From assembly GCA_000004985.1 (NCBI GenBank), contig GG738850.1: a stretch of 64,000 nucleotides of DNA; one strand, given 5' to 3'. The DNA is from Naegleria gruberi. Its lineage: Eukaryota. Below, piece after piece: positions 4,490 through 59,800 of this stretch. The position numbers were made by a program, and so were the translations under genes. The stretch's first letter is position 1. The number at the start of each line of letters is the position of its first letter. A model generated the notes under the pieces. That model ran no database searches, was not told where the DNA came from, and saw nothing but the letters and a program-made list of their open reading frames with translations.

Positions 4490-4562
4490 GCCGACATAGC
4501 TCAGTTGGGAGAGCGTAAGACTGAAGATCTTAAGGTCCCTGGTTCGATCCCTGGTGTCGGCA
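4490..4562 (+). tRNA. tRNA-Phe (anticodon GAA)
   Basis: 73-nt cloverleaf GCCGACATAGCTCAGTTGGGAGAGCGTAAGACTGAAGATCTTAAGGTCCCTGGTTCGATCCCTGGTGTCGGCA. The acceptor GCCGACA pairs with TGTCGGC. Anticodon loop is CTGAAGA, T-loop is GGTTCGATCC, there is no encoded CCA, and a T-run follows. Confidence 0.9.
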
Positions 4563-8227: not shown

Positions 8228-8308
8228 CGCGGTCTACAGGACTCGAACCTGTGCGGGTCTCCCCAATTGATTTCTAGTCAATCACCTTAACCACTCGGTC
8301 AAGACCGC
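8228..8308 (-). tRNA. tRNA-Ser (anticodon AGA), long variable arm
   Basis: The reverse complement reads GCGGTCTTGACCGAGTGGTTAAGGTGATTGACTAGAAATCAATTGGGGAGACCCGCACAGGTTCGAGTCCTGTAGACCGCG (81 nt). It aligns position-for-position with canonical eukaryotic tRNA-Ser(AGA): D-arm GCCGAGTGGTTAAGG, anticodon stem-loop ATTGA-CTAGAAA-TCAAT, long variable arm. Confidence 0.85.
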
Positions 8309-36078: not shown

Positions 36079-36167
36079 GGGTGGTTAGCTCAGCGGTAGA
36101 GCACCGGATTGCAAAGTTAATTGCAGCAGACATCCGATGGTCACGTGTTCGATCCACGTACCACCCT
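36079..36167 (+). tRNA. tRNA-Cys (anticodon GCA) with a ~17-nt intron 3' of the anticodon
   Basis: GGGTGGT-TA-GCTCAGCGGTAGAGC-A-CCGGA-TTGCAA[AGTTAATTGCAGCAGAC]A-TCCGA-TGGTC-ACGTG-TTCGATC-CACGT-ACCACCC-T. The acceptor and T arms are perfect. The anticodon loop TTGCAAA gives GCA. The insert at canonical position 37/38 contains TGC complementary to the anticodon, which is typical of nuclear tRNA introns. An oligo-T terminator follows. One C:A mismatch in the anticodon stem. Confidence 0.7.
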
Positions 36168-36570: not shown

Positions 36571-37314
36571 ATGGTAAAATCAGATCAACCTACCGCACCA
36601 ACTGGCACACGTTGTAAAACATGTGTTTGTGGAGAAACAGGGTGCGAACATATCAAGCAATTGAGAAAAATGACTGGTAAAGGGAAACCATATATCAAAA
36701 GCTTTAATGAAAAGATCCAACGTTTAATAACATTAGAAATGAAGGACGAATTTGAGAAGTTTTTAAAGGGAGAATTGACAAAAATCAACTTGGATTCTCT
36801 CAAGCCAAAGACTGGAAAAGAATACGAACTTGGTATTAAAGTTGAATTTTATGATGTCATTGAAGTGAAGTGGAAGAAAACTATTCAAACATGTGACAAC
36901 TCTAACTCAAGTATTGGATCAAGTGCTAATCCACTCCGTTCTCCACAAACAGGTAATGATATCTTAAATTTTTTTGAAGAAGCCAATGAAGACAACATGT
37001 CAGATTCATCAGTCAACCTTGATGAAATGAATGAATCTCAAACAATCCATTCACAGCCTAAATATAAGTGTATGGTAGATACTCCAGAAAGTTTGCAAAT
37101 GATCTGTCTATCTGATATTGAATTGAGAAGCTATTCCAATTTAAAAACACGTTTGAGTGAAAAGTTCTCATGTACTGTTGGTAGCATCTATTTCAAATAT
37201 CAACAGGATCGTAAAAAGTGCCTGTTGGAAGATGATAGAGATTTAATGGATTTATTTAGTCGTGAATTAATAAAGAGTCAAAAGGATTGGGAAAACTTTA
37301 TAATTTCCATTTGA
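36571..37314 (+). CDS. Hypothetical protein (247 aa) with an N-terminal Cys cluster (CKTCVCGETGCEH) and a possible PB1-like C-terminus. It lies between the two tRNA-Cys copies.
   Basis: Real ATG at 36571. The weak C-terminal acidic/basic pattern KYKCMVDTPESLQMICLSDIELRSYSNLKTRLSEKF...YFKYQQDRKKCLLEDDRDLMDLF recalls a PB1 fold. Weak. Confidence 0.4.
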   Translation: MVKSDQPTAPTGTRCKTCVCGETGCEHIKQLRKMTGKGKPYIKSFNEKIQRLITLEMKDEFEKFLKGELTKINLDSLKPKTGKEYELGIKVEFYDVIEVKWKKTIQTCDNSNSSIGSSANPLRSPQTGNDILNFFEEANEDNMSDSSVNLDEMNESQTIHSQPKYKCMVDTPESLQMICLSDIELRSYSNLKTRLSEKFSCTVGSIYFKYQQDRKKCLLEDDRDLMDLFSRELIKSQKDWENFIISI

Positions 37315-37365: not shown

Positions 37366-37454
37366 AGGGTGGTACGTGGATCGAACACGTGACCATCGGA
37401 TGTCTGCTGCAAATATCTTTGCAATCCGGTGCTCTACCGCTGAGCTAACCACCC
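37366..37454 (-). tRNA. tRNA-Cys (anticodon GCA), second intron-containing copy in inverted orientation
   Basis: Its reverse complement is identical to the 36079 copy except in the intron (AGATATTTGCAGCAGAC versus AGTTAATTGCAGCAGAC). Confidence 0.7.
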
Positions 37455-44619: not shown

Positions 44620-45327
44620 TTACAACTTTGAATTAATCGACATTACTCCAATATAGGAACACAAGTGTCCAATAATTGGATTCTTAATATTCACCTCCAC
44701 GTACCATGAATTTGTTGGACGTGAATTCTTATCAAAAACACAAATGGAGTGACCACTAGGATCAATGGAAAGTAAGCGAGGTAATGGAATGAATCCAAAG
44801 AGATACATCTTTTTGAATTGATGTTCAAATCCAACAATTTCATATGGTGCATTTTCATAACCTTCCAAATCATTCCTATAAATGGGAACTAATTTAAATC
44901 CAAATGAAAATATTCCAAAACTTTCAATGACCAAATCATCCTTTATCGACCATTTTGAAGTCAATGCTTCTCCATCAAATGTTCTCTTCCAATAATTATC
45001 TTCAATTTTCACAATCACTTGAGCTCCTTCATTCTCCTTTGGAAGACCTCCAAGAGTGGCAAATAATTGTGAAATAAATGTTTCACCTCTGATGACTTGT
45101 AAACTACCTGTGGCAATACTCTTCTCCGGATCATTTGCTATTCCTCTGTGAAAATCTACAAAGTAAGGAGGAAGCTTTTCAATCACTTCCTTTCCGAGAC
45201 CAAATTGCAATGGATCATCATTCTTTGATTGTTGTTGGAGGAGTGATGAAGTGGAAAAGAATCTTTTTGTTGATAAAAGATTACACGATTGTTTAATGAA
45301 CTGTGGGCCAGTTACAAGTTTTCTCAT
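44620..45327 (-). CDS. Hypothetical protein (235 aa) with an N-terminus resembling a mitochondrial presequence
   Basis: Real ATG. MRKLVTGPQFIKQSCNLLSTKRFFSTSSLL is basic, hydroxylated and lacks acidic residues. Confidence 0.35.
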   Translation of the reverse strand: MRKLVTGPQFIKQSCNLLSTKRFFSTSSLLQQQSKNDDPLQFGLGKEVIEKLPPYFVDFHRGIANDPEKSIATGSLQVIRGETFISQLFATLGGLPKENEGAQVIVKIEDNYWKRTFDGEALTSKWSIKDDLVIESFGIFSFGFKLVPIYRNDLEGYENAPYEIVGFEHQFKKMYLFGFIPLPRLLSIDPSGHSICVFDKNSRPTNSWYVEVNIKNPIIGHLCSYIGVMSINSKL

Positions 45328-49254: not shown

Positions 49255-50163
49255 ATGAAAGTATTGCCAATCAATGATTCTTTAATCATTCAACAAGGTT
49301 CCCTCGAGAAGGAATCATCAACAAACGTGCAAAAACATTCAGCCAGTGTTCGTAAGGCCATTAACAATAACAATACCTCCTCATACAAGCTGGAAGATAA
49401 TGAGTTGGAATTTAACTTGTTTCGCTCGGGGAGAGGATGCTGTCTTGATGGATTGTGTTCTATTAAGAGTGTTATTCTCTCATTCTTAATTGTCTCTCTA
49501 CTCTTGACATGTGCTGTGATTTGGGCTGTACTGATGGTGCTCATCTCACAGGAGGTGAATATAACGATGGGCATTGCTTCGCTGGTTGTTTGGTGCACGT
49601 GTATTGTTTCGGTAATTGTCTTTGGTGTGGTATCCTCTGTGGTGGTCTATTATTTGATAAGGAAACCTATGAGAGAGCTAACCAGACAACTCTTCACAAT
49701 GAAATCATTGAGATTCGACTCGGTTATCCAGCTCTCCTCCATAATGTATGAATTTATTCCCCTCTTCAGGATCTTCTTAGAGATGAACAATTTAATGAAG
49801 GAGATTAGACCATTCATTCCAGAATCTATTACCAGATCTTCAGAGTATGAAACTGAGAGTAATAACAGTTCAGACAATCAGGAGCAACAGAAGGAAATTC
49901 AAATGATGGCCATGAGAATGTCACTTAAAACATCAAATTCTATTGCTCAATTGGGTAAAGCTCCATCAACAGCTCTGATCCAAAATTCCCTCAAGTCTGT
50001 AAATTCTGTGGCCAAATTGAAGAGAGCCATGTCGAAAATGAGGAAATCAATGGAAGGAACTGGATCAGAAGGAGCAAGTTTCCAATCCAAAGACGGCGTG
50101 GAGCAACAGCAACATCTGCAGGTTTCACACCTCAAATCACAACCAATTTGGGTCTTGGATTGA
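49255..50163 (+). CDS. N-terminal part of a membrane-anchored signalling protein: 2 TM helices plus a cytoplasmic helical region. It is probably the same gene as the next feature.
   Basis: Real ATG. TM1 is VILSFLIVSLLLTCAVIWAVLMVL and TM2 is MGIASLVVWCTCIVSVIVFGVVSSVVVYYLI. The frame ends 15 nt inside the start of the next ORF, which is in another frame. Confidence 0.45.
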   Translation: MKVLPINDSLIIQQGSLEKESSTNVQKHSASVRKAINNNNTSSYKLEDNELEFNLFRSGRGCCLDGLCSIKSVILSFLIVSLLLTCAVIWAVLMVLISQEVNITMGIASLVVWCTCIVSVIVFGVVSSVVVYYLIRKPMRELTRQLFTMKSLRFDSVIQLSSIMYEFIPLFRIFLEMNNLMKEIRPFIPESITRSSEYETESNNSSDNQEQQKEIQMMAMRMSLKTSNSIAQLGKAPSTALIQNSLKSVNSVAKLKRAMSKMRKSMEGTGSEGASFQSKDGVEQQQHLQVSHLKSQPIWVLD

Positions 50164-51065
50164 ATTCACACATTACCACCATTATTGTCATTCAATTCAG
50201 AAACTTTGATGGCAAGTGTTATCCAAACACATCCGATCTCGTCTCTGTATTCACCCTCTTGTTCCAGAAGGTTCAGAGTGCCAGTAGACAATTCAAAGGA
50301 AGATGCTCTATCATTACTCCAAAGGTTTTGATGATTAGTTTTGAGGTGGGAAAGAATGTCGAGAGAAATGCCCTATTATGTGCACTTCAATTGGAGAAAC
50401 AAATGCAAGCAATTAATTCACAACTTTGTGAACAAGTTAATCTCCCACCTATTCAGTTTGGTATTGGAATTTCAAGATCTGAATGTTTGATTGGTAATAT
50501 TGGAACGGCTGCTGTTAGATTTTCTGCTCTGATTGGAGCTTGTTCCAGTAATGCATTGAGATTATCATGTTTGTGTGCCTATTTGGGAACTTCCATCTTG
50601 ACAGATGAATCTCTCATGTTGGCACTTCAGAGAGGATTCATAACGAGACCTGTACATTTTATTAGAAAGACATCGATATTTGATGGTGAGGTGTTGAGCT
50701 TGGAAGATGGTGATGACGACAATAAGCAAACCATTTATCAACTACTCGGAGAATCCAAACTTCAAGATGATGAATGGCTCTACGAATTGCAGCAACACGA
50801 AAACAATAACAAGTACAAGGAATTCGATAGAGCTTTTGATTTACTTCGAGTTGGAAGTGTAGATTCTAAATTGTTGGCAGAAATTTGTGATGTATTTGGT
50901 TCTTATCTGAGTAAATATCCTGAAGACAGAGTTGTCTCACTCCTATACACGCAACTGACAGAATTATCCAAGCTAGATGCCAAAGACGTGGAGAAGGCAG
51001 TTAGATCTTTCAGTTTGGAAAAGACAGACGTTCCACTCCATACTGATCCTTCTTTTATATTGTAA
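50148..51065 (+). CDS. Class III nucleotidyl-cyclase homology domain (adenylyl/guanylyl cyclase-like), apparently catalytically degenerate. In a different frame from the upstream TM exon.
   Basis: ITTIIVIQFRNFDG aligns with the VTILFSDIVGFT block. KGRCSIITPKVLMISFEV aligns with HCLRIKILGDCYYCV. IQFGIGISRSECLIGNIGTAAVRFSALIGACSSNALRLS aligns with LRIGIHSGPVVAGVVG..PRY.LFGDTVNTASRM. Several metal- and substrate-binding residues are substituted. There is no in-frame ATG before the domain, and no phase-compatible GT..AG joins the two frames without deleting conserved domain sequence. Confidence 0.4.
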   Translation: MGLGLNSHITTIIVIQFRNFDGKCYPNTSDLVSVFTLLFQKVQSASRQFKGRCSIITPKVLMISFEVGKNVERNALLCALQLEKQMQAINSQLCEQVNLPPIQFGIGISRSECLIGNIGTAAVRFSALIGACSSNALRLSCLCAYLGTSILTDESLMLALQRGFITRPVHFIRKTSIFDGEVLSLEDGDDDNKQTIYQLLGESKLQDDEWLYELQQHENNNKYKEFDRAFDLLRVGSVDSKLLAEICDVFGSYLSKYPEDRVVSLLYTQLTELSKLDAKDVEKAVRSFSLEKTDVPLHTDPSFIL

Positions 51066-51444: not shown

Positions 51445-52969
51445 ATGAAACTGATCCAATTGGTGATTGCTGTCTGTATGATAGCTTGTATAGTTCTTTC
51501 CTCTCACACTGTTTCACCACAAGAAGTGAGAGACAAACACTTGAAGGTATGCTTTTGTCAATTATTGTATATTGAATAACGAACTTTGGTTTCAATACTA
51601 ATAGGGTGTTGTTATCCATCAACCACCATTCGTATTTATCGATAGAAACACAACAGATCCCTCTCAAAGATACACTGGTTTTTCAATTGACTTGATTCAA
51701 ACTCTAGTTTCCAAAATGTCAAATGTTTCCATTGAATTTTATGAAGTTCCTGATGGTACCTTTGGCAGTCCATCAACAACAAGTGGAAACTGGACAGGAA
51801 CTATTGGTGAATTAATGACTGGTCGTGCAGATGTCATGGTCGGCCCTTTGACAATTACTCAACTAAGACATCAAGTCATTGATTTCACAACTAGTTTCTT
51901 TGATGTTGGTCTTTCCATTTTAACAACTAAACAAGGAGAAGAATCCAACCTATTCTCCTTCTTGTTACCATTCTCATGGGAGGTTTGGATTTTGATATTT
52001 GCCAGTGCCTTGATTGTTGCCTTATTGACTTGGTTTTTTGATCATGTTTCTCCATATGGACATTCGAAACAAGATGATGATTCAAAGAATGAATTGGATT
52101 TTAGTGGTTCTTTAATCAATGCTTGTATGACCATTTCTGGTCAAGATGGTAATCCAGGTAAAAGTTGGTCAACCAGAGTAATGCTACTCGGTTACTTTCT
52201 CTTCGTCATGATTATCCTCTCCACATACACAGCCAACTTGGCAGCTGTCCTCACCACAAAAGTTCAATCCACAAGAGTAACTGGTCTCTCTGATATCAGA
52301 ACTTATGGTTTCAAGTTTGCTGTGGCCAAGAATTCAGCACCTGCATCCTTCATCTCCTCTAGTGAGGAAATGGCAGATATCAAAAAGAACATGGTTCTAT
52401 ACGATTCTCTGGACGATTGTATCAAGGCACTCAGAGAAGGTCAAGTCGATGCTCTGATATGGGTTTCTTCCATTCTCGAATATATGGCCAACCAGCCACC
52501 TTGTGATACCTTAATCGTTGGTGATTTGTTTAATCCTGGTAATTATGGACTGCCATTTGCGAAGGGAAATTGGATGATCGGACATTTCTCTTCAATTCTC
52601 TTGTCGATGAGAGAAAGTGGACTTGTGGAAAAGTTAAAGAAAAAGTGGTGGATTGAGAAGGGAAGTTGTTCATTGGTTGCCTCATCACAGGAAGCATCTG
52701 GAGTGAAGATTCAAGACTTGGGAGGTATCTTTTTGATTTTGGCTGGTTTTATATTTGTTGGTGGTTTGATTTTGATATTCGAATTGGTGTATAGAGCTAT
52801 CTATGATAAGACGAAAAATAGAACTAAACATTTAAAGTATTTAAATAGATTCTTGGGAGGTGAGAAACATCAAGAAAGTGATAAAGAAGAACAAGAATTA
52901 AAGACAACCAATATTGCTGCTTCCACTCAATCTCTGCAAACAGATGAAAACAAAATTATCAATCAATAA
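51445..52969 (+). CDS. Ionotropic glutamate receptor (iGluR)-like ligand-gated channel lacking an amino-terminal domain: signal peptide, S1, M1, pore loop, M3 (SYTANLAA), S2, M4. Two exons, approximately 51445..51546 and 51605..52969.
   Basis: Exon 1 is MKLIQLVIAVCMIACIVLSSHTVSPQEVRDKHLK (donor GTATGC, 58-nt intron, ACTAATAG). S1 is GNWTGTIGELMTGRADVMVGPLTITQLRHQVIDFTTSFFDVGLSIL. M1 is WEVWILIFASALIVALLTWFF. The M3 gate motif is ILSTYTANLAAVLTT. M4 is IFLILAGFIFVGGLILIF. Confidence 0.75.
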
Positions 52970-52994: not shown

Positions 52995-55900
52995 CTACCA
53001 GAAAAGGAAACTGAAATTAAGCTTTCTAATAACCCACTTTCTCATTTCATCATAAAAAATCATCAAAAACATCCAAGGAATTGGATACAACCAAAAGTCA
53101 ATAATCATAAATCTCGTATTGAAAATATAATCTCCAATGAATGGAACATAAATTAAAATCACCAACAAGCAAGCAGAATAGATTAATCCAAAATAGGTCA
53201 TTAAATTACCCAATAATCCATGTGTGAAAATGCTCAATCGACGAGTTTTGCAACTGAATAGAGTGGCCCATTGACAAATGACAATTGTCATGAAAAATGC
53301 TGTTTGTGCAGTGCATAGAACGTTATGTTGATACATCTTATCCAAATACATTCCAGTTTCTTCAATGTAAAGCTTTTTATCCGAATTGATATCGAAATAA
53401 TCCTTGCTAGTTGCTTCCCAAAGATATTTTGGTGGAATTCCATAATAAGCAAAGACTAGGAAGTAATTTGTAAAGCATGCAAGAGTTTCAATTACTCCCA
53501 TTTGGAGATAGGAAAAGATTAATAAGGAAGAGCTTACTAGTGGTTGATTCTTGGTACGAGGTGGAATGCTCATAATGTCAGATTCGGCTGTTTCGTAGGC
53601 GAGACTGACTGCACTGATGAGCTCCTTTTTAAGATTTTAAATTTGATATATTTGGATAATATAAAAATTGATAAATTAAGAATTTTCCAAATAAGTAAAA
53701 CTTACAGTTCCCAAATCAACACACAAAATCAATAAACCTGTAATTGGAAGAGGCATGCTAAATACAATAAAAACTAAATAAGGGAAAATTTCTGCAGATA
53801 AATGTGAAACAGTATAAGCAATTGACTTTTTCAAATTGTCAAAAATCAATCTGCCTTCCTTAATACCATTCACAATCGAAGCAAAGTTATCATCCAACAA
53901 GATTATAGCAGCTGCTTCTTTAGAAACAGCACTTCCTGAAATATTCATAGCCACACCTACATCTGCCTTCTTTAGAGCAGGTGAATCATTAGTTCCATCT
54001 CCTGTCACAGCGACACAATGCCCCAATTCTTGGAATTTTGTAACGATAATCAATTTTTGTTGAGGTGAAGTTCTGGCAAAGACAATTTGCTTCTTTTTAA
54101 GAATTTGTTTCCATTCCTTAGATGTCAACTTGTCAATTTCTTCTCCGTGTAAAACAATGGCATCAGCTCTACTGTATGGAATGGTTTTTGGATCACAACT
54201 TTCTTCCTCTGCGATATCGTCAATGGTTCTGGCGTCTGATTCGATAATTCCAACTTGTTTGGCTATGGCTTTGGCTGTGGCTGGGTGATCTCCTGTGACC
54301 ATGACTACTTGAATTCCTGCTTTCTTACATTGTCCAATACATTCAGGAACTCCTACTTTTGGAGGATCAGTCAATCCAGCCATTCCCAAAAAGCAAAGAC
54401 CTTCCATTGGAATGGATTGAGCAATTTGATCAGAAGTTTGTCCAGATTTCTCAATTCTTAATTGTTCCTCAACCAAATGTTCATCAATGAAAAGTTGGGC
54501 AAAACCCAAAACTCTCTCACCCTTAGAAGCAAAGAAATCATAGGCGTCCTTAAAATTTTGTTTCCAATTATCGTCCAATGGTAAAGTTTGTGAGCCAACT
54601 CTGATGTGTGAACAACGTTGAATGATTCTCTCTGGGGCTCCTTTCATGAGCAACAAAACTTTGGAATCAGTACTGGCACTGTCAGTGGTATTGGTAGTCC
54701 ACTGAGGGAGGTGATTATTCTTTCTAATACTTAACATCCACTTGTTTTTAGAATTGAATGGAATGGAATAAAGTTCAGTATAATCAGAACGAAACTCTTC
54801 AATGGTAGCACAATCAGTTCTTGTCTGAATGAATTTAACTAAAGCTGTCTCACTAGCATCTCCTTCACATTCTCTGTCCAAAATTGGTTTTCTCAAATTG
54901 TCTTCCTCTGGCACGAAATAAGTTTTCGAGCAGAGAGCTGAACATCTTCTCAACATTTGATCAGTTGTCAATTGTTCTTCACCTTCTTTTGAGTAACTTG
55001 TTAATGGAGTTAAGGTGCTTGGCTTTTGGGTCATGTATCTGTCTTGGTAATCTACAGAAGAAACTCTTCCATCTACCCATAGCTCAACAACTGTCATTCT
55101 GTTTTGTGTCAAAGTTCCTGTCTTGTCACTACAAATAACTGATGTACTGCCAAGTGTCTCAACATGCTCAAGCTTTTTAACGAGGACATTCACTGCCTTT
55201 AGACGTTTAGCACTGACTGTTAAGCAGACAGTTACTGTAGGAATCAATCCTTGTGGAATGTTAGAAATGATTATACCAATAGCAAATAAAAAATTAGTGA
55301 ACCAACTGTTTCCAATAGCAAATCCTAAACAGAAGAAAATAATGGCCATTGTGAAGGCCAGAACAGCAATCTTTCTAACAAAACTGTCAATTTCTCTTCT
55401 GAGTGGAGTTTTCTTTTCAGTTGAAGCTCCTGCCAATAAAGCAATTTGACCAATGACAGTTTGATTTCCACATCTAATTACGATACCATAACCACTTCCT
55501 TCCAAAGCCAAAGTTCCAAAGAATACCAAATTATTTGTTTCCAAAGGATTCTTTGAAGTCATTTCCACACTCCTTGATTGAGGTTCAGTTTCTCCTGTCA
55601 AGGAAGCATTATCAAGTTTTAGTTGTGAACAAGAAACCACACGTAAATCAGCTGGAATTTTATCACCACCCTCAATTCTAACCAAATCACCCAAAACCAA
55701 TTCTTCAACTGGAATTTTTTGTGGAATTCCATCACGAATCACCATACAGCTGTCACTTTGCATTTGTTGAAAACTCTGCAAAACCTTCTCACTCGATCTT
55801 TCCTGAACCAATGTAATGGTAGCATTCATAATCACAATAAACCACAAGATGACACCCAGAAATATATTCGGATAGGATTCAGTTGTTCTCTCAATGGCAA

Positions 55901-56882: not shown

Positions 56883-59800
56883 TTAGAAACTTAATTTATC
56901 TCTTAATTGAATGAGTTGTTTGGAAATATCGGAAAATTCTGGTCTATTACTTGGATCCATATCCCAACACTGTTGCATGAGTTTCGTATAATCTTCAGTG
57001 ACCGATTTGAGTACTGAAAATGGAGCGCTAGTTTCTTGTCCATACACATTCATCCACTCATGCAACTCCTCGTCATTTCTAAATGGTATAATTGGTCTTT
57101 CATTATTTAAAACTTTCATTGGAACTGTATATGGTTGATCTTCACAAGTTGCCTTTCTGAAATGGTGAATTTTAGAGCTAGCTGCATTCAGATATGGATT
57201 TTCCAAAAAGTATAATTCATACATGACAATTCCAAATGAGTAGACATCAACTTTGTGTGTAATCTTTGTAGATGATCCCTGTAGACCTTCATTTCCAATA
57301 TAAAACAAAGTTCCAACATTGACAGTCATTGAAGTTTGTAATTGATTGTTTCCAATGATTTTGACCAAACCAAAATCACACACCTTACAATTATTGGATT
57401 CATCCAAAAGAATATTAGCTGGTTTCAAATCTCTGTGAATCACTGAGGGTTGAAGGGAGTGTAAATAATTCATTCCATTACTCACTCCAATTAAAATATT
57501 AATCTTTTCCTTCAATGATAAAAATTCAATATTTTGCTTGCATTTGTAAATAATCTTGTCCAAGCTTCCCTTCTTTACAAACTCTGTAATCATATACTTT
57601 GAGGTCTCGGTAATACAGACACCATAGAATGAGACAATATTTGGATGTCTGAGTCTTGAAAGAATGGCAGCTTCCTTTTCAAATTCAAAACTTCCTTCTG
57701 CAGTTTTCAATGATTTAATGGCAACTTCAGTATTGACCCAGAGTCCTTTATAGACATTTCCGTAACCTCCCTCACCAATACGTTTGGTAATTTCAATATC
57801 CTGAACTGGAATAACTACAGAACTTTTAACTGTGTTTTGGTTCATGTGATCGTTTTCCAAAAGTGGAGAATCATAATCTGAATTATGTTTTGATTTGTAA
57901 TAACTTGTTGATCTTGAATGAGTATAATTTGTTTCACTATCACTCATTTCAAAGACAATTTTGTTGTCTAAAATTGTTTTTTCCAAATTCTTTTCTGCAT
58001 TTTCCTTCCTTTTAAGTAATCTTAATTTGGAAATAATTTTAGAAGTGCAATAGAATATTAAAAATCCCAAAATAGTTCCACCCAACAACATGAGAATACC
58101 CACAGGCACTGTGATTGAAATAATGAGAGTTTCCAAATCAATTACATTTTTGCAAACAAAAATTTGTTGTTCATTAACAAATTCTGCAACCATTCGTAAT
58201 GGCATTGGACAAGGCAGCAATGTAATATTAAAATTGGTAGTTACCAACGATTCTGAGATTATTTTCACATTGGCAGTTGTGTTTTCATAGATTGCCTTTG
58301 TGAAATAGACACTTGCAATAAATCGCTTATTTCCAGCAATGGATGAATTAATTTGTAAATAGTCTGAAATTATTTTGAAATTCTCAGATTGGAGTGGTAA
58401 TTCTAAACCCAGGTTTCCCAAAAATCCCATTTCTATTGTAATATTCTGTCCAGATTCCACAGAAGGGCTCACATAGTCAATTGTTAAATTTCTGCCAATT
58501 GATGAAAAGTCATCTCCAAACATGGAAGCTCTATTACCTCTGAATGTATTACCTGGTCCAATTATACTATTATTTACACTTGATACTAAAATTGATTGTT
58601 CAAAAAAGTAGAAGGCACCTCCTGTCATATTTGCAAAATTGTCAATCAGTGTGAAATCTTTAAATAAGTATGGAGATCTATTCCAATACGTGAAATACCC
58701 TACACACAAAGCTCCTCCTCTAATAGCTCTATTTCCAATAAACTCAGCTCCCCCATAAGATCCAGGACCATGTCCAATAGAATGGATGGTTAGAGCTCCA
58801 CCACAACCCAGCAACATTCCAGCGATTGCATTTCCAACCTCTCTCTTGATATAATTTCCAATAAATTTGGTATTTTCAAATTGGGTTACCAACATGTCTT
58901 GACGAATGAATAAGGCACCTCCAGATTGTAAAGATAAATTTTCCTTAAATAGGCAATTAATAAATTTCATGATAAAGCTATTGGTTAAGAAAATAGCACC
59001 ACCAAAAGTATTAGCTCCATTTCTAATAAAAGTTGAATTGGCAATAAAACTTTCAGTAAAATAGGCGTTTTCTATCGAATATTACAAAATTAGAAATATT
59101 TTAGAAATGAACTTACCTGAAAACGAAGCAATACTAATTGCACCACCAAAAGCAATAGCACGATTGTCTGCGAATGTGCAATTATCCATATTTAGTGAAA
59201 CAATATCACGGAATCCCAAAACTCCTCCTTCATTACCAATATTTCTATAAAACTCACTGTGATTAATAATAGTTTCAGAAACGGATGTAATCTCAACCAC
59301 ACTCTTAACATTCTTATAAGTGTCCAATACATTACAATCAAATATCGTTGTATATTCTATCATTAAATTTAGTATAGCTCCCAATTGTGCAAACAAATCC
59401 AAATTCTGAGCTACACAATTTGTAATTTTAACCTTATCAACAAATTCCACAGCAAGTGCAGGTAAGTAATATTTTGAAATTTGAAACTTGGTGTTAGAAA
59501 ATAGAGTTGAATCAGCTTTTGTGATTACAATATTCGATCCAATACAAATCGAGTCCTTAATCTCCAATGTCTTTAATCCAACAGCTCTAAAAGATAAAAA
59601 ATCAAAGTAGGTTTCGGATACCTCAACATGTCCACAATTTGCAAAGGTAAAAGTAAATCCAATTGCACCTACAAAGACAACATTCTTAAATTTGACAGTT
59701 TTCACATTTGAAAAATCCAAACTGTAAGCTTCTTTAGTACAGTAGACTTCTTCGAATATGACATCTCCAGAGGAAAAGTTGTAAACTTGATAATTAGCTA

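Follow-up and report, generated by a model that had tools for sequence, protein, structure and literature searches.

Excitatory neurotransmission in animals relies mainly on ionotropic glutamate receptors (iGluRs), whose origin is an open question. A stretch of 64,000 nucleotides from the amoeboflagellate Naegleria gruberi (assembly GCA_000004985.1, contig GG738850.1; the whole stretch is hereafter called the window) carries at positions 51,445-52,969, on the plus strand, a gene that bears on it: what kind of iGluR does this gene encode, and what might the receptor bind? A reading made from the DNA letters without database searches (the sequence-only reading) had proposed an iGluR homologue that lacks an amino-terminal domain (ATD) and resembles prokaryotic GluR0-like and some protist or plant receptors rather than those of animals. 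The gene is very probably a genuine eukaryote-type, ATD-less iGluR subunit, NAEGRDRAFT_46318, one of three N. gruberi paralogues and a member of an Amoebozoa/Discoba clade. Its gene structure, family membership, domain order, lack of an ATD, residue identities and clade placement are direct observations. The protein is already present in the databases and in a published receptor phylogeny, and is thus not a new discovery.

Gene structure and domain architecture

The interval 51,445-52,969 proved exact as the extent of a two-exon gene, running from an ATG through a 58-nt intron to a TAA; the spliced product has 488 amino acids, with an intact reading frame and canonical splice sites. Exon 1 (51,445-51,546) begins with the ATG and encodes residues 1-34, MKLIQLVIAVCMIACIVLSSHTVSPQEVRDKHLK, a signal-peptide-like segment with a hydrophobic core of 17 residues (MKLIQLVIAVCMIACIVLSS...) at positions 3-19. 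The intron (51,547-51,604) is of the GT..AG type and in phase 0, with TACTAAT close to its 3′ end, and exon 2 (51,605-52,969) encodes residues 35-488, uninterrupted, followed by the TAA. In the frame of exon 2, the codons TAA TAG lie directly 5′ of Gly35, so that a complete S1 and ligand-binding domain (LBD) can be reached through splicing alone. The first methionine within exon 2 is residue 72, and a start there would cost S1 its first strand and helix. The G+C content of the gene is 0.375, against 0.31-0.38 across the window, and both composition and intron fit the host genome.

The exon-2 product is 100% identical to a "predicted protein [Naegleria gruberi]" (EFC48569.1, XP_002681313.1, D2V345, NAEGRDRAFT_46318). 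When compared with window positions 51,692-52,969, the RefSeq entry XP_002681313.1 is a 417-residue protein that begins at Met72 in exon 2 and is without the first 71 residues: it has no exon 1, intron or signal peptide, nor the first 37 residues of S1. The protein of the RefSeq model would probably not fold or traffic, because the signal peptide and these S1 residues are absent, and the exon-1/intron model is better than the RefSeq start. The model of the paralogue XP_002677912.1 (P0002) is, in addition, missing the greater part of M1 together with the M1-M2 linker, leaving an alignment gap opposite residues ~168-205, and that of the third paralogue starts with "MTIRGVAIHQPPF" and has no signal peptide. 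All three N. gruberi iGluR gene models look mis-annotated.

The full S1-M1-P-M3-S2-M4 core that had been proposed is borne out by Pfam, a search of the PDB, AlphaFold2 and Foldseek alike. Pfam identifies Lig_chan-Glu_bd (PF10613) at residues 34-144 (E 2e-28), Lig_chan (PF00060) at residues 158-415 (E 1.9e-25) and SBP_bac_3 (PF00497; E 7.4e-15). A phmmer search against all PDB chains gives 395 matches, led by GluN1 (E 4.5e-56) with GluA1 and GluA2 next (~1e-52), and all span residues ~33-435, which is the entire mature protein minus its C-terminal tail. As measures of sequence similarity, these matches are far stronger than chance. Hydropathy indicates an N-terminal hydrophobic segment (residues 1-26) and further segments at M1, M3 and M4. 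The AlphaFold2 model has a mean predicted local distance difference test score (pLDDT) of 84.6, with helices at residues 159-182 (M1), 200-211 (pore helix), 222-251 (M3) and 403-437 (M4). With Foldseek, ~415 columns align to the LBD and transmembrane domain (TMD) chains of AMPA receptors (E~1e-30), the TM-scores being modest because the orientation of LBD and TMD is that of a monomer model.

The domains follow one another on the plus strand. The S1 half of the LBD (residues 35-147; 51,605-51,943), recognised from PF10613 and the alignments, contains F60, P115, T117 and R122, as well as N-glycosylation sequons at N49, N74 and N96. It leads into the M1 helix (residues 159-182; 51,977-52,048), placed by hydropathy and AlphaFold2, and then into a re-entrant pore loop (52,100-52,159), in which the alignments and AlphaFold2 distinguish the pore helix FSGSLINACMTI (residues 200-211) and the filter SGQDGNPG (residues 212-219). 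The M3 helix (residues 222-251; 52,166-52,255), supported by hydropathy, AlphaFold2 and alignments, carries the gate TYTANLAAV at residues 241-249 (52,223-52,249). The S2 half of the LBD, defined by alignment (residues 252-400; 52,256-52,702), includes S278-A279-P280 at 52,334-52,342 and W320-V321 at 52,460-52,465. M4 (residues 403-437; 52,709-52,813), found by hydropathy and AlphaFold2, aligns with M4 of GluN1, and the cytoplasmic tail (residues 438-488; 52,814-52,966) is modelled at low AlphaFold2 confidence and has no recognisable motif. Cys334 and Cys389 fall in the columns of GluN1 C744/C798 and GluA2 C718/C773, where a cysteine is present in 173 and 169 of 195 homologues, respectively, and may form a disulfide. 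The features of a eukaryote-type iGluR are thus seen together: a bipartite S1/S2 LBD split by the channel module, M1-P-M3 with its gate, M4, and the S2 cysteine pair. As for the cleavable signal peptide of the sequence-only reading, the signal-peptide-like N-terminal segment is there, and its removal would be expected from this segment and from the architecture of relatives.

The absence of an ATD, also proposed earlier, was upheld. The 488-residue protein has no match to PF01094 in Pfam, and when the N-terminal 400 residues of ATD-bearing receptors were compared with the 64-kb window by tblastn, only the overlap with S1 was matched. The upstream gene stops at 51,065, and the 379-nt spacer between it and the ATG has 6-11 stops in each frame. 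The upstream open reading frames (ORFs) have no Pfam match, even at E 0.1, and no ANF_receptor; as they offer nothing beyond a weak cyclase-like stretch in pairwise BLAST, they were ruled out as ATD exons. Relatives (P0004, P0005, P0015, P0016, P0057 and P0059-P0064) likewise pass from a signal peptide straight into an S1 of the "...IHQPPFVF" type. On the metagenomic contig L004, a 50%-identical relative (P0003) is encoded by a single unbroken ORF that reads MSQWIAVLVFFACLTTVSILPMANGYTPVKDTVIRAVTIHQPPFVF..., with the signal peptide directly joined to S1. When the exon-2 translation was searched exhaustively against representative sequences, the top ~20 matches were proteins of 407-487 amino acids that match from residue ~25-40, whereas long animal receptors match from residue ~400 on. 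The absence of an ATD is typical of the Amoebozoa/Discoba protist clade.

Relatives and phylogenetic placement

There are three iGluR paralogues in the N. gruberi genome altogether, the other two being XP_002677912.1 and XP_002676467.1. A close paralogue is 76-85% identical and keeps the same motifs, with Ala at the position of Val321. The short-protein clade includes named members from Pyxidicula operculata (Arcellinida) and Pelomyxa schiedti (Archamoebae), and its diversity amounts to at least 20 clusters at 50% identity. Among named animal representatives, a Lingula GluN1 matches best, and identity to any animal iGluR is 26-35%.

Phylogeny was assessed with a neighbour-joining (NJ) tree with Kimura distances (373 columns, 100 bootstraps, rooted on bacterial GluR0-like proteins), which serves as a rough check. 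The protist group joins the animal iGluRs with 92% bootstrap support, to the exclusion of one plant GLR and the bacterial GluR0-like proteins; within this assemblage it stands beside GluN1 and GluN3A with 23% support, and the Naegleria-type subclade receives 97%. The proposed affinity with GluR0 and plant receptors rather than animal ones, for which a phylogeny against these three groups had been suggested as a check, was therefore not sustained: of the three, animal iGluRs are the closest in sequence, GluN1 foremost, M4 and the cysteine pair are present, and there is no TXVGYG.

The dataset of a recent eukaryote-wide phylogenetic study of iGluRs (Commun Biol 2025 8:994; PMC12226733) includes XP_002681313.1 and both N. 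gruberi paralogues, and the nearest representatives found here are short and ATD-less, which places the protein in the clade. In that study, the Amoebozoa/Discoba iGluR clade associates with animal NMDA receptors and clustering links it to animal iGluRs; the gene tree makes the clade an NMDA-receptor paralogue, and the reconciled tree puts it outside the NMDA receptors. The searches made here recover this clade, and the NJ tree agrees with its association with animal iGluRs. The study worked from the N-terminally truncated model of this protein, and its text, as far as it was read, contains no discussion of the domain architecture (no mention of an ATD), pocket residues or pore of these protist receptors, and no functional data for them. 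An earlier network study placed the root of the AMPA/kainate and NMDA families in the human-Discoba ancestor, and protist receptors of this sort had already been noted phylogenetically (PMC12226733, PMC7947827). A literature search for Naegleria together with iGluR returned no dedicated study.

Two further relatives were observed in passing. An ATD-less relative of 39% identity (P0016; contig L002, 4001-5374) has Leu for the ligand-binding Arg, Phe for the acid and the gate AYIANLAAS, and may represent a clade member that is ligand-independent or gated in another way; its 253-kb contig (JGI) also bears a PPR-DYW deaminase gene. In a 2362-residue predicted protein (P0065) from the representative search, five separate stretches match the query (E 1.8e-72), which suggests several iGluR cores that are fused, or were mis-merged, in one prediction.

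Ligand pocket, pore and possible function

The pocket was read at GluA2-numbered positions by a rule summarised in PMC12226733, using phmmer and MAFFT alignments and a survey of 195 homologues. At the positions of backbone contact, the protein has F60 at 450 (Y450 in GluA2, F484 in GluN1), P115 at 478 and T117 at 480 (P478 and T480 in GluA2), R122 at 485 (Arg in 189 of the 195 homologues), A279 at 654, and V321 at 705 (Asp or Glu in 165/195). The side-chain determinants are S278 at 653, P280 at 655, W320 at 704 (as W731 of GluN1), I324 at 708 and Y348 at 732. Under the rule, Ser at 653 with a hydrophobic residue at 655, Pro explicitly included, indicates glycine or D-serine as ligand (PMC12226733). 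By this reading of the residues, the S278/P280/W320 signature is of the glycine/D-serine type. Thr655, which holds the γ-carboxylate of glutamate, is absent, and the "NSAP"-type Pro is repeated across the protist clade. Among the contacts to which the sequence-only reading had pointed (Arg, Thr and an acid), Arg122 and Thr117 are in place and the acid is replaced by Val321.

The gate was given earlier as SYTANLAAVLT, a string that does not occur in the protein. Its context is L-S-T-Y-T-A-N-L-A-A-V-L-T, and the motif TYTANLAAV differs from the classical SYTANLAAF at two positions, of which only the Val at position 9 had been recognised. Thr precedes Tyr in 63 of 173 motif matches among 201 fetched homologues; of these matches, 115 have Phe and 17 have Val at position 9, and in the 195-homologue survey Val is likewise the second commonest residue there (17, vs 122 Phe). 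The stretch STYTANLAAV is identical in a fish GluN3A-like protein (P0025) and nine further fetched homologues, and members of the protist clade have F, V, S, A, N, T or M at position 9. Since Val recurs among homologues and position 9 varies within the clade, the variant is unremarkable, and the idea that the Phe-to-Val change is special was rejected, both deviations being common among the surveyed homologues.

The pore-loop string noted earlier, MTISGQDGNPGKS, is present at residues 209-221. The filter stretch reads I211-S212-G213-Q214-D215-G216-N217-P218-G219, has no TXVGYG, and is by its sequence not of the K+-channel type. The equivalent of the Q/R/N site is I211 according to HMMER against GluN1, G213 according to MAFFT anchored on the "SL" of the pore helix, and S212 by an ungapped count back from K220; none of these candidates is Q, R or N, and the AlphaFold2 pore helix stops at I211.

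These features would fit a ligand-gated cation channel, most likely one used by the amoeba for chemosensing. Once the signal peptide is removed, the subunits would form tetramers in the plasma membrane, either homomeric or shared with the paralogues. Outside the cell, the S1/S2 clamshell may bind a small carboxylate-bearing ligand, and its closure would pull on the M3 bundle crossing (TYTANLAAV) and open a cation pore that is presumably not K+-selective, so that the cell would be depolarised and/or Ca2+ would enter. In a bacterivorous amoeboflagellate, the most plausible use would be the sensing of amino acids or related metabolites.

Several points weigh against this account. Val321 sits where an acid binds the α-amino group of the ligand; position 705 is D/E in 165 of the 185 homologues having a residue at that column, and the acid at the D705/D732 position is kept in 92% of 204 animal iGluRs (Structure 2024, bioRxiv version). 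Classical gating by amino acids may therefore be weak or absent, because Val321 removes the acid contact. The AlphaFold2 model is that of a monomer, built from a 40-sequence alignment. Ion selectivity, which the sequence-only reading suggested the pore-loop string may indicate, is not predictable from it, because HMMER, MAFFT and ungapped counting differ by as much as two residues on the Q/R/N equivalent. The three diverge to the same extent over the "+4" acid, whose position cannot be fixed, and no claim is made on Ca2+ permeability or polyamine block because of these disagreements. A literature search by the accessions of the locus found no paper that mentions it and none that reports a function.

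Val at position 705 is rare: of the 195 homologues, only one has it besides P0001, the RefSeq entry for this very protein. Within the clade, the acid is retained in XP_002676467.1, P0014, P0015, P0060-P0063 and P0070, and other members have V, A, N, T, F or P instead. In GluN1, glycine potency drops very strongly with the mutations D732V, D732I and D732A, and constitutive activity results from D732L and D732F; a Trichoplax receptor with a natural Tyr at this position is a leak channel inhibited by glycine (Structure 2024, bioRxiv version). By analogy, a subunit with Val321 should respond poorly to α-amino acids, barring compensation. Because the glycine/D-serine-type signature is kept while the contact to the α-amino group is lost, the subunit is predicted from its residues to be a low-affinity amino-acid sensor, a sensor of other carboxylates, or an accessory to the Asp-bearing XP_002676467.1. 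The pocket of XP_002676467.1 has Arg, Pro655 and Trp-Asp, and the present gene and XP_002677912.1 have Val or Ala for the acid. It is conceivable, if distinctly improbable, that the three paralogues embody a division of labour of the NMDA type that arose before animals, XP_002676467.1 being the canonical glycine-type subunit and the other two acting in heteromers as accessory, low-affinity or non-amino-acid-sensing subunits. If this were true, no system would be simpler than the amoeba for studying how obligate heteromeric, co-agonist-type iGluR gating arose.

The same residue invites a different account, in which the hydrophobic Val321 biases the LBD to its active state and yields a constitutively active or ligand-inhibited channel, that is, a cation leak that the ligand modulates or shuts. 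V321 is hydrophobic, as are the residues that activate GluN1 (Leu, Phe) and the Tyr of the placozoan receptor, and the latter is inhibited by millimolar Gly, Ala and D-Ser. However, the β-branched substitutions D732V and D732I in GluN1 cut glycine potency without the activation by glutamate alone that is seen with Leu or Phe, the effect of mutation depends on the subunit, and the close paralogue has Ala at this position; this account is unlikely. Loss of the acid together with the truncated RefSeq model could also be taken as the mark of a decaying, non-functional copy, a pseudogene in the making. This is very unlikely given an intact 488-codon frame with canonical splice sites, the conservation of R122, T117, both cysteines, the YTANLAA core and M4, the paralogue of 76-85% identity that retains the motifs, and the confident AlphaFold2 fold.

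Other alternatives concern origin and architecture. That the gene was acquired horizontally from an animal, recently or long ago, and that an NMDA-like gene lost its ATD after transfer and spread among amoebae, would agree with the animal GluN1 top matches, with the position of the clade as NMDA-receptor paralogue in the published gene tree and, at 23% support, in the NJ tree, and with the patchy distribution over Heterolobosea, Arcellinida and Archamoebae. Vertical descent from an early eukaryotic iGluR is nevertheless favoured, and transfer improbable, in view of the 26-35% identity to any animal iGluR, the host-like G+C content, a short GT-AG intron that is plausible for the host, and the diversity of the clade. 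An ATD on unrecognised upstream exons could in principle escape notice, and a prokaryote-type GluR0 K+ channel would accord with the comparison drawn by the sequence-only reading; both are extremely unlikely. The 64-kb window holds no ATD-like sequence, the upstream gene ends at 51,065 without an ANF_receptor match, exon 1 already supplies a methionine and signal peptide, and the relatives, including the unbroken L004 ORF, run from signal peptide to S1. A GluR0 K+ channel is contradicted by M4, the cysteine pair and the lack of TXVGYG, and the clade does not include the bacterial GluR0-like proteins.

A eukaryote-type, ATD-less iGluR subunit thus remains the preferred identification. A compact receptor of this kind in an amoeboflagellate, scoring best against NMDA-type subunits, bears on the origin of iGluRs: an LBD-TMD-M4 core with a glycine-type pocket exists outside animals and outside any nervous system. 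To our knowledge, no receptor of this protist type has been expressed so far. The present analysis contributes a full-length coding sequence, corrected to include the signal peptide and a complete S1, and shows a natural Val at a position that in experiments governs both ligand potency and constitutive activity; it also compares the pocket residue by residue across the protist clade and corrects the GluR0/plant comparison. With the corrected sequence, the Val and the residue comparison in hand, a functional test is straightforward. These additions leave the family picture unchanged.

Genomic neighbourhood and known receptor systems

On its 3′ side, the iGluR gene converges with a multi-exon P-type cation ATPase gene (52,995-55,847 and beyond, minus strand; E1-E2_ATPase, Cation_ATPase, Hydrolase and Cation_ATPase_C domains). 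As the stop codons lie 25 nt apart, the 3′ untranslated regions of the two genes must overlap or be extremely short. Upstream, the gene at 49,255-51,065 (plus strand) contains a stretch, GIGISRSECLIGNIGT, that weakly resembles the catalytic core of a guanylate-cyclase-domain protein (pairwise E 2e-5). The gene for the latter (L004, 2527-3666, minus strand) adjoins the iGluR relative on contig L004, and the shared cyclase-like neighbour may reflect a conserved neighbourhood or chance; Naegleria has many cyclase genes.

Elsewhere in the window lie genes for a tRNA-Phe(GAA) (4,490-4,562, plus strand), a tRNA-Ser(AGA) (8,228-8,308, minus strand), a DUF4166 protein (44,620-45,327, minus strand) and a protein kinase with a long N-terminal extension (56,883-58,970, minus strand). 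Two near-identical 89-nt elements at 36,079-36,167 (plus strand) and 37,366-37,454 (minus strand), inverted and ~1.2 kb apart, flank an ORF at 36,571-37,314. Each scores 54.7 bits with Rfam and was missed by ARAGORN, and the two differ by 2 nt inside an insertion of ~17 nt that lies 3′ of the GCA anticodon loop; they look like intron-containing tRNA-Cys genes.

Among the known receptor systems, Synechocystis-type GluR0 shares with the Naegleria protein the lack of an ATD and an LBD split by the pore module. The GluR0-like proteins examined have the TVGYGD filter of K+ channels, no M4 and no S2 cysteine pair, and lie outside the eukaryotic group, and the Naegleria protein is the opposite in each respect; of the features that mark GluR0, only the absent ATD is shared, not TXVGYG or a missing M4. 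Plant GLRs are likewise non-animal iGluR homologues with M4, but they have an ATD (PF01094 in P0011) and a SYTASL-type gate, and group apart from the animal and amoeba cluster. The ATD belongs to the full-length architecture of both animal iGluRs and plant GLRs, and is not found in the Naegleria protein. Vertebrate "probable glutamate receptor"/U1-like proteins of the kainate-binding-protein type and short amphioxus receptors resemble it in size (~440-490 amino acids) and in their order of signal peptide, S1, M1-M3, S2 and M4. In the NJ tree, which covered the vertebrate proteins of these two sets, the U1-like and "probable glutamate receptor" proteins differ in falling within the animal AMPA/kainate group, so that their loss or lack of an ATD is independent.

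The fish GluN3A-like protein P0025 shares the gate S-T-Y-T-A-N-L-A-A-V. Judged from the sequences, this Val is most likely convergent, because elsewhere in the Naegleria clade the position is occupied by Phe, Ser, Ala, Asn, Thr or Met. The Trichoplax leak channel AKDF19383 (AKDF1) likewise carries a natural hydrophobic residue where the D705/D732 acid would be, the rest of its pocket being glycine-type, but it has Tyr-Tyr where the Naegleria protein has Val-Ser, and is a member of the animal AKDF branch; unlike AKDF19383, the Val mutant of GluN1 is not reported to be constitutively active. GluN1 itself differs from the Naegleria protein, to which it is ~30% identical, in having an ATD, in D732 (Val in Naegleria), in S688 (Ala) and in the Asn at the Q/R/N site. 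Three characteristics of NMDA receptors are accordingly missing from the Naegleria protein, namely this Asn, an acid of the Asp732 type and a robust place among them in the tree (23% bootstrap). Yet GluN1 is the best sequence match, with F484, P516, T518, R523, W731 and the C744/C798 pair in common, very similar M3 and M4 helices, and a residue other than Thr at the 655 position (V689 in GluN1, Pro in the Naegleria protein).

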